A DNA stretch of 3,359 bases, taken from the NCBI RefSeq assembly GCF_003334385.1, contig NZ_QOWN01000094.1; one strand, written 5' to 3'. Positions 1 through 1,980 of this stretch are shown one piece after another (position 1 is the first letter of the stretch; the number at the start of each line of letters is the position of its first letter). Source of the stretch: Escherichia coli. GTDB lineage: Bacteria > Pseudomonadota > Gammaproteobacteria > Enterobacterales > Enterobacteriaceae. The notes under the pieces were generated by a model that worked only from the letters and a program-made list of their open reading frames with translations, was not told the DNA's origin and ran no database searches. Both the position numbers and the translations under genes were made by a program.

Positions 1-1980
1 GGGGTAAGCGGTGAGGCTCAGATTGCGTCCATCAGCCAGAGTGTGGCGCGTTTCTCCTCTGCATCCGGCGTGGAGGTGGACAAGGTCGCTGAAGCCTTCG
101 GGAAGCTGACCACAGACCCGACGTCGGGGCTGACGGCGATGGCACGCCAGTTCCATAACGTGACGGCGGAGCAGATTGCGTATGTTGCTCAGTTGCAGCG
201 TTCCGGCGATGAAGCCGGGGCATTGCAGGCGGCGAACGAGGCCGCAACGAAAGGGTTTGATGACCAGACCCGCCGCCTGAAAGAGAACATGGGCACGCTG
301 GAGACCTGGGCAGACAGGACAGCGCGGGCATTCAAATCCATGTGGGATGCGGTGCTGGATATTGGTCGTCCTGATACCGCGCAGGAGATGCTGATTAAGG
401 CAGAGGCTGCGTTTAAGAAAGCAGACGACATCTGGAATCTGCGCAAGGATGATTATTTTGTTAACGATGAAGCGCGGGCGCGTTACTGGGATGATCGTGA
501 AAAGGCCCGTCTTGCGCTTGAAGCCGCCCGAAAGAAGGCTGAGCAGCAGACTCAACAGGACAAAAATGCGCAGCAGCAGAGCGATACCGAAGCGTCACGG
601 CTGAAATATACCGAAGAGGCGCAGAAGGCTTACGAACGGCTGCAGACGCCGCTGGAGAAATATACCGCCCGTCAGGAAGAACTGAACAAGGCACTGAAAG
701 ACGGGAAAATCCTGCAGGCAGATTACAACACGCTGATGGCGGCGGCGAAAAAGGATTATGAAGCGACGCTGAAAAAGCCGAAACAGTCCGGCGTGAAGGT
801 GTCTGCGGGCGATCGTCAGGAAGACAGTGCTCATGCTGCCCTGCTGACGCTTCAGGCTGAACTCCGGACGCTGGAGAAGCATGCCGGAGCAAATGAGAAA
901 ATCAGCCAGCAGCGCCGGGATTTGTGGAAGGCGGAGAGTCAGTTCGCGGTACTGGAGGAGGCGGCACAACGTCGCCAGCTGTCCGCACAGGAGAAATCCC
1001 TGCTGGCGCATAAAGATGAGACGCTGGAGTACAAACGCCAGCTGGCTGCACTTGGCGATAAGATCACGTATCAGGAGCGCCTGAATGCGCTGGCGCAGCA
1101 GGCGGATAAATTCGCACAGCAGCAACGGGCAAAACGGGCCGCCATTGATGCGAAAAGCCGGGGGCTGACTGACCGGCAGGCAGAACGGGAAGCCACAGAA
1201 CAGCGCCTGAAGGAACAGTATGGCGATAATCCGCTGGCGCTGAATAACGTCATGTCAGAGCAGAAAAAGACCTGGGCGGCTGAAGACCAGCTTCGCGGGA
1301 ACTGGATGGCAGGCCTGAAGTCCGGCTGGAGTGAGTGGGAAGAGAGCGCCACGGACAGTATGTCGCAGGTAAAAAGTGCAGCCACGCAGACCTTTGATGG
1401 TATTGCACAGAATATGGCGGCGATGCTGACCGGCAGTGAGCAGAACTGGCGCAGCTTCACCCGTTCCGTGCTGTCCATGATGACAGAAATTCTGCTTAAG
1501 CAGGCAATGGTGGGGATTGTCGGGAGTATCGGCAGCGCCATTGGCGGGGCTGTTGGTGGCGGCGCATCCGCGTCAGGCGGTACAGCCATTCAGGCCGCTG
1601 CGGCGAAATTCCATTTTGCAACCGGAGGGTTTACGGGAACCGGCGGCAAATATGAGCCAGCGGGGATTGTTCACCGTGGTGAATTTGTCTTCACGAAGGA
1701 GGCAACCAGCCGGATTGGCGTGGGGAATCTCTACCGGCTGATGCGCGGCTATGCCACCGGTGGTTATGTCGGTACACCGGGCAGTCTGGCTGACAGCCGG
1801 TCGCAGGCGTCCGGGACGTTTGAGCAGAATAACCATGTGGTGATTAACAACGACGGCACGAACGGGCAGATAGGTCCGGCTGCTCTGAAGGCGGTGTATG
1901 ACATGGCCCGCAAGGGTGCCCGTGATGAAATTCAGACACAGATGCGTGATGGTGGCCTGTTCTCCGGAGGTGGACGATGA
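1..1980 (+). CDS. H: Tail tape measure (length-determining) protein gpH, 5'-partial; C-terminal 659 aa plus stop
   Basis: Frame 1 is open from nt 1 to the TGA at 1978..1980, so the gene enters from upstream of the window; the GTG at 43 used by the ORF track is an internal codon, not the start. The translation (…[30 protein letters not shown]… through …[12 protein letters not shown]) matches my recollection of lambda gpH. It has a long Ala/Gln/Lys/Glu/Arg-rich helical region followed by a Gly-rich C-terminal region, typical of tape measure proteins. 660 codons in the window is consistent with an 853-aa gpH starting 193 codons upstream. Confidence 0.94.
   Translation, partial: [659 protein letters not shown]
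1966..1973 (+). promoter_or_regulatory. Shine-Dalgarno sequence for M (GGAGGTGG), inside the 3' end of H
   Basis: GGAGG at 1966..1970 is read directly, 6 nt upstream of the M ATG at 1977. The site lies within H coding sequence, as expected for translationally coupled genes. Confidence 0.6.

Follow-up and report, generated by a model that had tools for sequence, protein, structure and literature searches.

The tape measure protein (TMP) of bacteriophage lambda, gpH, is cut within a glycine-rich region into gpH* and a fragment of ~14 kDa named gpHC (Yu et al. 2025, Sci Adv, PMC12617516). In the same work gpH* was concluded to form no less than a major part of the channel across the envelope and found to turn protease-resistant in liposomes (Yu et al. 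2025, PMC12617516). [quoted passage not shown] In phage T5, pb2 carries a hydrophobic stretch upstream of a cut after R1127, and insertion of this stretch into the outer membrane has been proposed (Linares et al. 2023, PMC10038345). Here we analyse a window of 3,359 nucleotides of Escherichia coli DNA, the whole stretch under study, in which the first large open reading frame (ORF) corresponds to the final 645 codons (3' part) of lambda gene H, the gene start lying upstream of the window. The element of interest is a 33-residue Gly/Ala-rich segment encoded at 1507-1605 on the plus strand, in frame with this ORF; it corresponds to ORF residues 489-521 and to residues 697-729 of the 853 residues of gpH.

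We conclude, with moderate confidence, that the segment is a junction between two unlike parts, the end of a conserved helix and a variable flexible linker, and that this junction most likely hosts or borders the maturation cut. The 33 residues had been singled out from the letters of the DNA, in what we call the sequence-only reading, as one membrane-active unit resembling glycine zippers or fusion peptides. That interpretation is partly supported, its unit having been mis-drawn by merging helix end and linker. The protein and residues studied by Yu et al. (2025) are the same as ours, with nothing different in the segment, and the segment, the cleavage region and the weak TM prediction are already in print; the present analysis adds the anatomy across the family and the naturally occurring deletions of the tract. 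The segment sits at the gpH*/gpHC junction, and mapping it would therefore help settle how the lambda TMP leaves the tail, how DNA is conducted across two membranes, and at what site, by which enzyme and for what purpose gpH is cut.

Family-wide anatomy of gpH 697-729

The segment is identical to that of lambda and consists of 10 Gly, 9 Ala, 4 Ser, 4 Ile, 3 Val and one each of Met, Thr and Gln, with no Asp, Glu, Lys, Arg or His. It lies within a 35-residue charge-free run (Q695-A729), the longest in the H ORF; in shuffles of the ORF the longest such run averages 17.6 +/- 3.7 residues and reaches at least 35 with P = 0.0013. Gly, Ala and Ser together account for 70% of the segment versus 29% of the protein, and Gly alone for 30% versus 8%. 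Small-xxx-small pairs occur at 16 of 29 possible positions, compared with 13.9 +/- 1.4 after shuffling of the segment (P = 0.13), and GxxxG occurs three times where 2.5 are expected (P = 0.48); a formal GxxxGxxxG is present at 705-713 (GSAIGGAVG; G705, G709 and G713). The composition is thus beyond chance and the spacing of small residues is not beyond composition. The sequence-only reading was correct in naming the gene as H, in placing the segment in the C-terminal part of its product (as the alignment to PDB 8IYK confirms), in its translation of 1507-1605 and in describing the segment as uncharged and rich in small residues. The spacing of small residues every 3-4 positions, which it also pointed out, follows from the composition by these counts.

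At the nucleic acid level, local GC content is 0.69 versus 0.58 for the ORF. No RNA family match was found in the window (Rfam), and DNA repeats in 1400-1750 are short chance ones, with no tandem repeat under the tract. An explanation at the RNA or DNA level was rejected on the lack of an Rfam match and of a meaningful repeat, and the feature is one of the protein encoded by gene H.

To place the segment in its family, the last 246 residues of gpH were used as query against 1.84 billion representative proteins, yielding 5358 matches, and the C-terminal 330 residues of 98 diverse homologs, each at least 450 residues long and 29-55% identical, were aligned; family-wide values below refer to these 98 unless stated otherwise. 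The segment starts five residues before the end of the Pfam domain Tape_meas_lam_C and divides in two. Its first ten residues, 697-706, form the C-terminal turns of a conserved helix. In this helix more than 77% of homologs have a hydrophobic residue in each of columns 684, 685, 688, 691, 692, 695-698, 700, 701, 704 and 705, whereas polar or small residues occupy columns 686, 690, 694, 699, 702 and 706. The last of these columns behaves as a helix cap, being Gly in 74% of homologs and Ser (S706) in lambda. Over 697-706 the Gly and Ser positions of lambda are mostly occupied by other residues (Q, S, A, M).

Beyond the helix cap the picture changes. The stretch equivalent to 707-730 ranges from 0 to 37 residues in length (median 22) and is composed of 24.5% Gly, 16% Ser and 15% Ala (56% together), with charged residues at 4% versus a background of 20%. 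In nine homologs it is 8 residues or shorter; ~90% of the diverse homologs keep more than 8 residues with the same charge-poor bias. Averaged across the homologs, identity to the query amounts to 15% in 697-729 and 72% in 731-785, and each of lambda's ten segment glycines is Gly in only 4-44% of homologs. Gly-Gly pairs at a spacing of four are in 1.5-fold excess, an excess for which, by our estimate, a single semi-conserved pair at the helix cap (G706-x3-G710) is largely responsible. The sequence-only reading had proposed an alignment of the Gly spacing as a check on itself and had named poor conservation among gpH homologs as what would count against it; the spacing is not conserved, and poor conservation is largely what the alignment returned.

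Immediately downstream the columns G736 G737 x T739 G740 x G742 G743 K744 Y745 are invariant and open a GG[YF]TGxGGKY...GEFVF module, whose double glycine is preceded by F-[AD]-x. At 731-785 identity among the homologs stays at 72%, compared with 30-50% otherwise, and no other part of the C-terminal region of the TMP is conserved as strongly. When a 107-residue query was compared by tblastn with 50,697 phage records, 962 records matched, ~800 of them only in the post-tract module (T1-like, Klebsiella and phi80-like phages), a number to which the low-complexity filter of BLAST may have added.

Structural information agrees with this division. In an AlphaFold2 (AF2) model, made as a monomer from a 45-sequence alignment (mean predicted local distance difference test score, pLDDT, 55.5), gpH 676-704 is helical, 705-819 is coil and 820-842 is again helical, with pLDDT below 50 over 696-737 and ~40 in the tract. 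The model recovers the known 818-849 coiled coil at 820-842, an internal positive control that lends it some credibility. The experimental counterpart of that helix is PDB 9E7M chain Ha, whose 32 residues match ORF residues 610-641. Biased composition, variable length and the lack of predicted or observed structure are thus found together in the tract, as in flexible low-complexity linkers between modules.

Close relatives alter the tract preferentially. In Lambda_ev058, three of five local substitutions fall within the segment, which makes up 33 of the 147 residues compared. In Stx2a-converting phages the changes S703R and Q725E place charges within the segment. Two cultured phages, N15 (gp16) and HK225, do without the 23-24 residues equivalent to lambda ~710-732 but retain the flanks on both sides; the same loss with retained flanks is seen in Phi06_2987, an unverified record. 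All three have Asp at the position of lambda G702. An ungapped tblastn match of mEp237 to the short variant indicates, from the match only, that its tract is probably absent too. N15 gp16 and HK225 belong to the same family, are ~70% identical to lambda here and share the flanks V.S...A.G and FA.GG[FY]TG; unlike lambda, they join the helix directly onto the module (..QAMVGLVDSATTALG|FAGGGYTGSGG..). Because N15 and HK225 exist without it, the tract is lineage-specific and not a family requirement. The N15-type proteins are in effect a ready-made natural deletion of the lambda tract.

The maturation cut and competing explanations

These observations fit a model in which residues 697-706 close the conserved rod helix and residues 707-729 would serve as a flexible, uncharged spacer that tethers the rod, the future gpH*, to a tip-anchoring module, the future gpHC. 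The latter would consist of the GG[YF]TGxGGKY...GEFVF module and the 818-849 coiled coil seated on gpI. During tail maturation a cut in or beside the spacer, favoured because the spacer is exposed and flexible, would yield gpH* and the ~14 kDa gpHC; by calculation, fragments of 14.4-13.8 kDa result from cuts at 713-722, within the tract. Proteomic data published in PLoS Biol in 2023, considered for locating the cut, give coverage by protein and not by peptide. After the cut the hydrophobic helix would be left at the distal C terminus of gpH*, or close to it, facing the cell, and it could therefore make contacts with gpI or with a membrane during ejection, the membrane contact being speculative. 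The Gly/Ala-rich composition would also suit a fusion-peptide-like element, for which the position of the new end at ~713-722 is an estimate from the 14-kDa mass only.

Several points weigh against a helix end followed by a flexible cleavage linker. Mass estimates from sodium dodecyl sulfate–polyacrylamide gel electrophoresis permit any position of the cut at ~705-745. The weak T5 analogy described below would set the cut at F733|A734, outside the tract (hhalign E = 0.3). The AF2 model is monomeric and of low overall confidence, whereas gpH is a hexamer or trimer in the tail. The linker is consistently poor in charge (4% vs 20%) and contains F, W, L, I and V, features that a pure spacer does not need. 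Low identity is itself weak evidence, as the functional 818-849 helix is only 17% identical in the same homologs. Finally, a 19-mer that is favourable on the Wimley-White scale is present in 80% of homologs, which makes a membrane role of the helix part possible.

Hydrophobicity was scored on three scales, Kyte-Doolittle (KD), Hessa and Wimley-White octanol, with the usual KD threshold of 1.6. The best KD 19-mer of lambda (1.53 at 696-714) is the top of the window's gpH part and lies just below this threshold; the best Hessa sum is an unfavourable +4.36 kcal/mol, and the best Wimley-White 19-mer in 684-729 scores +1.33. Hydrophobicity of the segment is therefore marginal and sub-threshold on all three scales. 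In the homologs the Wimley-White median is -2.33 and 80% fall below 0, the favourable 19-mer lying in the helix region, where lambda is among the least hydrophobic members of the family. As judged from the family sequences, the rod-end helix is moderately membrane-compatible.

A membrane-active element, the idea of the sequence-only reading in refined form, is one alternative, and we hold it to be unlikely. In this account the helix together with the Gly/Ala tract (~684-729) is the counterpart of the T5 pb2 stretch and inserts as a hexameric pore through GxxxG-type packing, entering the outer or inner membrane on ejection as the leading C-terminal end of gpH*. In its favour, the longest charge-free run (P ~0.001) and the highest KD-19 value (1.53) of the window's gpH part lie here, and the account can draw on the formal GxxxGxxxG at 705-713, the semi-conserved G706-x3-G710 with the 1.5-fold enrichment of spacing-4 Gly-Gly pairs in homologs, and the Wimley-White-favourable 19-mer in 80% of them. 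It is also consistent with the liposome protease resistance of gpH*, its part in the channel and the calling of 691-712 by some TM predictors (PMC12617516); the sequence-only reading had rightly named a role of gpH in envelope passage. The charge-free, A/S/G-rich residues 1030-1079 of T5 pb2, upstream of the cut and proposed to insert into the outer membrane, offer a precedent. Against insertion, however, stand the sub-threshold scores (KD 1.53 < 1.6, Hessa +4.4 kcal/mol, Wimley-White +1.3), the 'much less confident' call of 691-712 relative to 116-140 (PMC12617516), the lack of conservation of the lambda Gly positions and a spacing not above composition. N15 and HK225 are missing the tract and have Asp for G702, and in Stx2a phages the segment contains Arg703 and Glu725. 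A cut at ~713-722 would moreover send half of the segment off with gpHC. A304V, the only gpH change bypassing ManYZ to have been sequenced, is also distant from the segment, and phage TP901-1 can infect without one of the two hydrophobic regions of its TMP (PMC5099701). A membrane role, if genuine, would reside mainly in the helix, 684-712. As the membrane-inserting part proposed from the letters, the segment thus retains a possible share through its helix; its Gly-rich two-thirds are linker-like, and the tract is deleted in N15 and HK225.

Two further explanations concern the same residues. The stretch may instead serve assembly, as a patch shielded by gpG/gpGT or an element packed in the lumen, with the tract supplying slack for a 6-to-3 symmetry mismatch. 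Such a mismatch would call for a Gly-rich tether of variable length, and six gpH* face three resolved gpHC at the tip across a disordered junction (~690-817). Chaperone binding has also been linked to hydrophobic regions of TMPs, and infectivity of TP901-1 depends on only one of its two such regions (PMC5099701). The link of gpG/gpGT to this part of gpH is conjectural, however, and N15-type proteins manage without the tether, and we regard this explanation as distinctly unlikely. It is very unlikely, in our estimate, that the tract is without selected function, a neutral low-complexity expansion rich in GGN and GCN codons (69% GC) between two modules. Its extreme variability in length and sequence, its natural absence in some phages and its elevated local GC (0.69 vs 0.58 in the ORF) would be expected of neutral drift; the same charge-poor composition in the ~90% of homologs that keep a tract of more than 8 residues would not, and no tandem DNA repeat lies beneath it. 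We favour the junction of helix end and flexible linker, under which the Gly-rich tract is no glycine zipper that spans a membrane. The comparative data lower the chance that this tract is the membrane-inserting part, and attention is better placed on the helix 684-706 and, above all, on the near-invariant downstream GG[YF]TGxGGKY...GEFVF module.

A candidate for the cutting enzyme is encoded ~1.4 kb downstream. The N-terminal part of gpK, at 3010-3357 of the window, matches a Prok-JAB/MPN+ domain (PF14464, E 1.1e-14), with a weak NCBIfam match to desampylase, and contains an intact HxHx7SxxD metalloprotease motif at 3211-3252 (HSHPGGLPWLSEAD). JAB enzymes typically cut after Gly-Gly. The gpK JAB domain might then be the protease that cuts gpH at a Gly-Gly pair of the tract region, a long shot to which we attach very little credence; the site could be G709-G710, G713-G715, G720-G721 or the invariant G736-G737. 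We found no literature on gpK as the gpH protease. Were the proposal true, it would name both the protease and the site of gpH to gpH* maturation, and the channel protein, once ejected, would have the hydrophobic helix as its newly formed C-terminal tip.

Comparison with T5 pb2 and glycine zippers

T5 pb2 provides the best functional analogy for the lambda stretch. Its residues 1030-1079 form a 50-residue charge-free run rich in Ala, Ser and Gly, with a KD-19 of 1.82. As in lambda, the charge-free stretch is followed by a cut and a C-terminal fragment that ends, over ~35 residues, in a trimeric coiled coil on the tube plug; the corresponding order in lambda is helix and tract at 684-729, cut at ~705-745 and 818-849 on gpI. 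The two systems differ in that the T5 stretch ends 48 residues upstream of the cut, whereas the lambda cut probably lies in or beside the stretch, and in that pb2C has a metallopeptidase motif, whereas enzymatic activity has not been reported for lambda gpHC. A T5-type stretch would have room for two TM helices (~46 residues); lambda offers 35 charge-free residues and one marginal 19-mer.

For homology to pb2, a comparison by hhalign of the 45-sequence alignment with the C-terminal 219 residues of pb2 gave E = 0.3 and a probability of 0.2%. The sole alignment spans the GG...GE.V motif and not the hydrophobic stretch. It pairs window 1603-1692 with T5 pb2 1123-1150 (SFVPR|AEGGMMYPGVSYQMGEHGTEVVT) and places the R1127 cut opposite F733|A734. 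By this analogy, F733|A734 suggests itself as an alternative cut site just past the tract, which would release a 12.5 kDa fragment. Homology of the lambda post-tract motif to the pb2 cleavage region was rejected at E = 0.3 and is kept as a lead.

Glycine zippers are transmembrane GxxxG helix-packing motifs, reportedly described by Kim et al. (PNAS, 2005). The likeness perceived by the sequence-only reading is real insofar as lambda has a literal GxxxGxxxG in an uncharged stretch, GSAIGGAVG at 705-713, with a count of GxxxG that stays within composition. It fails on the other two properties. The segment is under-hydrophobic for a bilayer (KD-19 1.53, Hessa +4.36, Wimley-White +1.33), and its glycines are unconserved (4-44%), the tract being absent altogether from the close relatives N15 and HK225.

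Gene H, its neighbours and feature coordinates

Over its whole length the H ORF matches residues 209-853 of PDB 8IYK chain H (E = 0), and PDB 8IYL and 8K35, also the lambda tape measure protein, give the same end-to-end match. By profile it belongs to the lambda-type tape measure proteins, scoring 444.8 bits against TIGR01541 (tape_meas_lam_C; curated cut-off 104.75), which covers ORF residues 264-605 and includes the segment; the PF09718 match has E 1.5e-21 and the match to phrog_24 has E 1.8e-252. The window DNA is 99.2% identical to lambda, and to close relatives likewise. Relative to reference lambda, gpH here has five substitutions (S249T, Y332F, S458G, V549I and M790L), none in the segment; together with the 99.2% DNA identity they indicate that the source is a lambda-like phage or prophage and not the reference strain. 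Coordinates of the features are collected in Table 1. The antisense and alternative-frame ORFs that overlap the segment were set aside, as the H frame is backed by the end-to-end match to lambda gpH and there was no indication that the others are genes.

Table 1. Window coordinates of gene H, its C-terminal parts and overlapping reading frames.
Feature	Window position	Strand	Basis
Gene H, part (tape measure protein gpH 209-853)	43..1980	+	ORF list, PDB 8IYK, TIGR01541, phrog_24, DNA identity
Pfam Tape_meas_lam_C (PF09718), gpH 627-701	1297..1521	+	E 1.5e-21, ORF residues 419-493
Last helix of the helical rod, gpH ~676-706, hydrophobic/amphipathic, conserved	1444..1536	+	AF2, hydrophobicity columns of 98 homologs, published weak TM prediction
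Segment part one, gpH 697-706, C-terminal turns of the rod helix	1507..1536	+	Alignment columns
Segment part two and K730, gpH 707-730, variable Gly/Ser/Ala-rich linker	1537..1608	+	Homolog lengths, deletions, AF2, fragment mass, literature
Conserved C-terminal module, gpH 731-785, start of gpHC core	1609..1773	+	Identity and invariant columns in 98 homologs; tblastn
C-terminal helix, gpH 818-849, trimeric coiled coil on gpI at the tail tip	1870..1965	+	PDB 9E7M chain Ha, cryo-EM, AF2
Antisense and other-frame ORFs over the segment	1071..1589, 1496..1621, 1517..1741	-, -, +	ORF list

The lambda tail-tip gene order H-M-L-K is present, at 43..1980, 1977..2306, 2306..3004 and from 3010 onward, K being represented by its start only. 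This order is supported by a match to TIGR01600 (phage_tail_L), by the annotation of H, M, L and K in lambda records and by the match of K to Prok-JAB. The stop codon of H (TGA) overlaps the start of M (ATG) as ATGA at 1977-1980, the stop of M (TGA) overlaps the start of L (ATG) as TGATG at 2304-2308, and K starts 6 nt past the stop of L; stop-start overlaps such as those of H/M and M/L are typical of translationally coupled tail genes. Near the C terminus of gpL, residues 173-212 (window 2822-2941) contain five cysteines, C173, C182, C205, C208 and C212, and an iron-sulfur cluster has been reported in this five-cysteine region in the lambda tail structure (PMC10721106).

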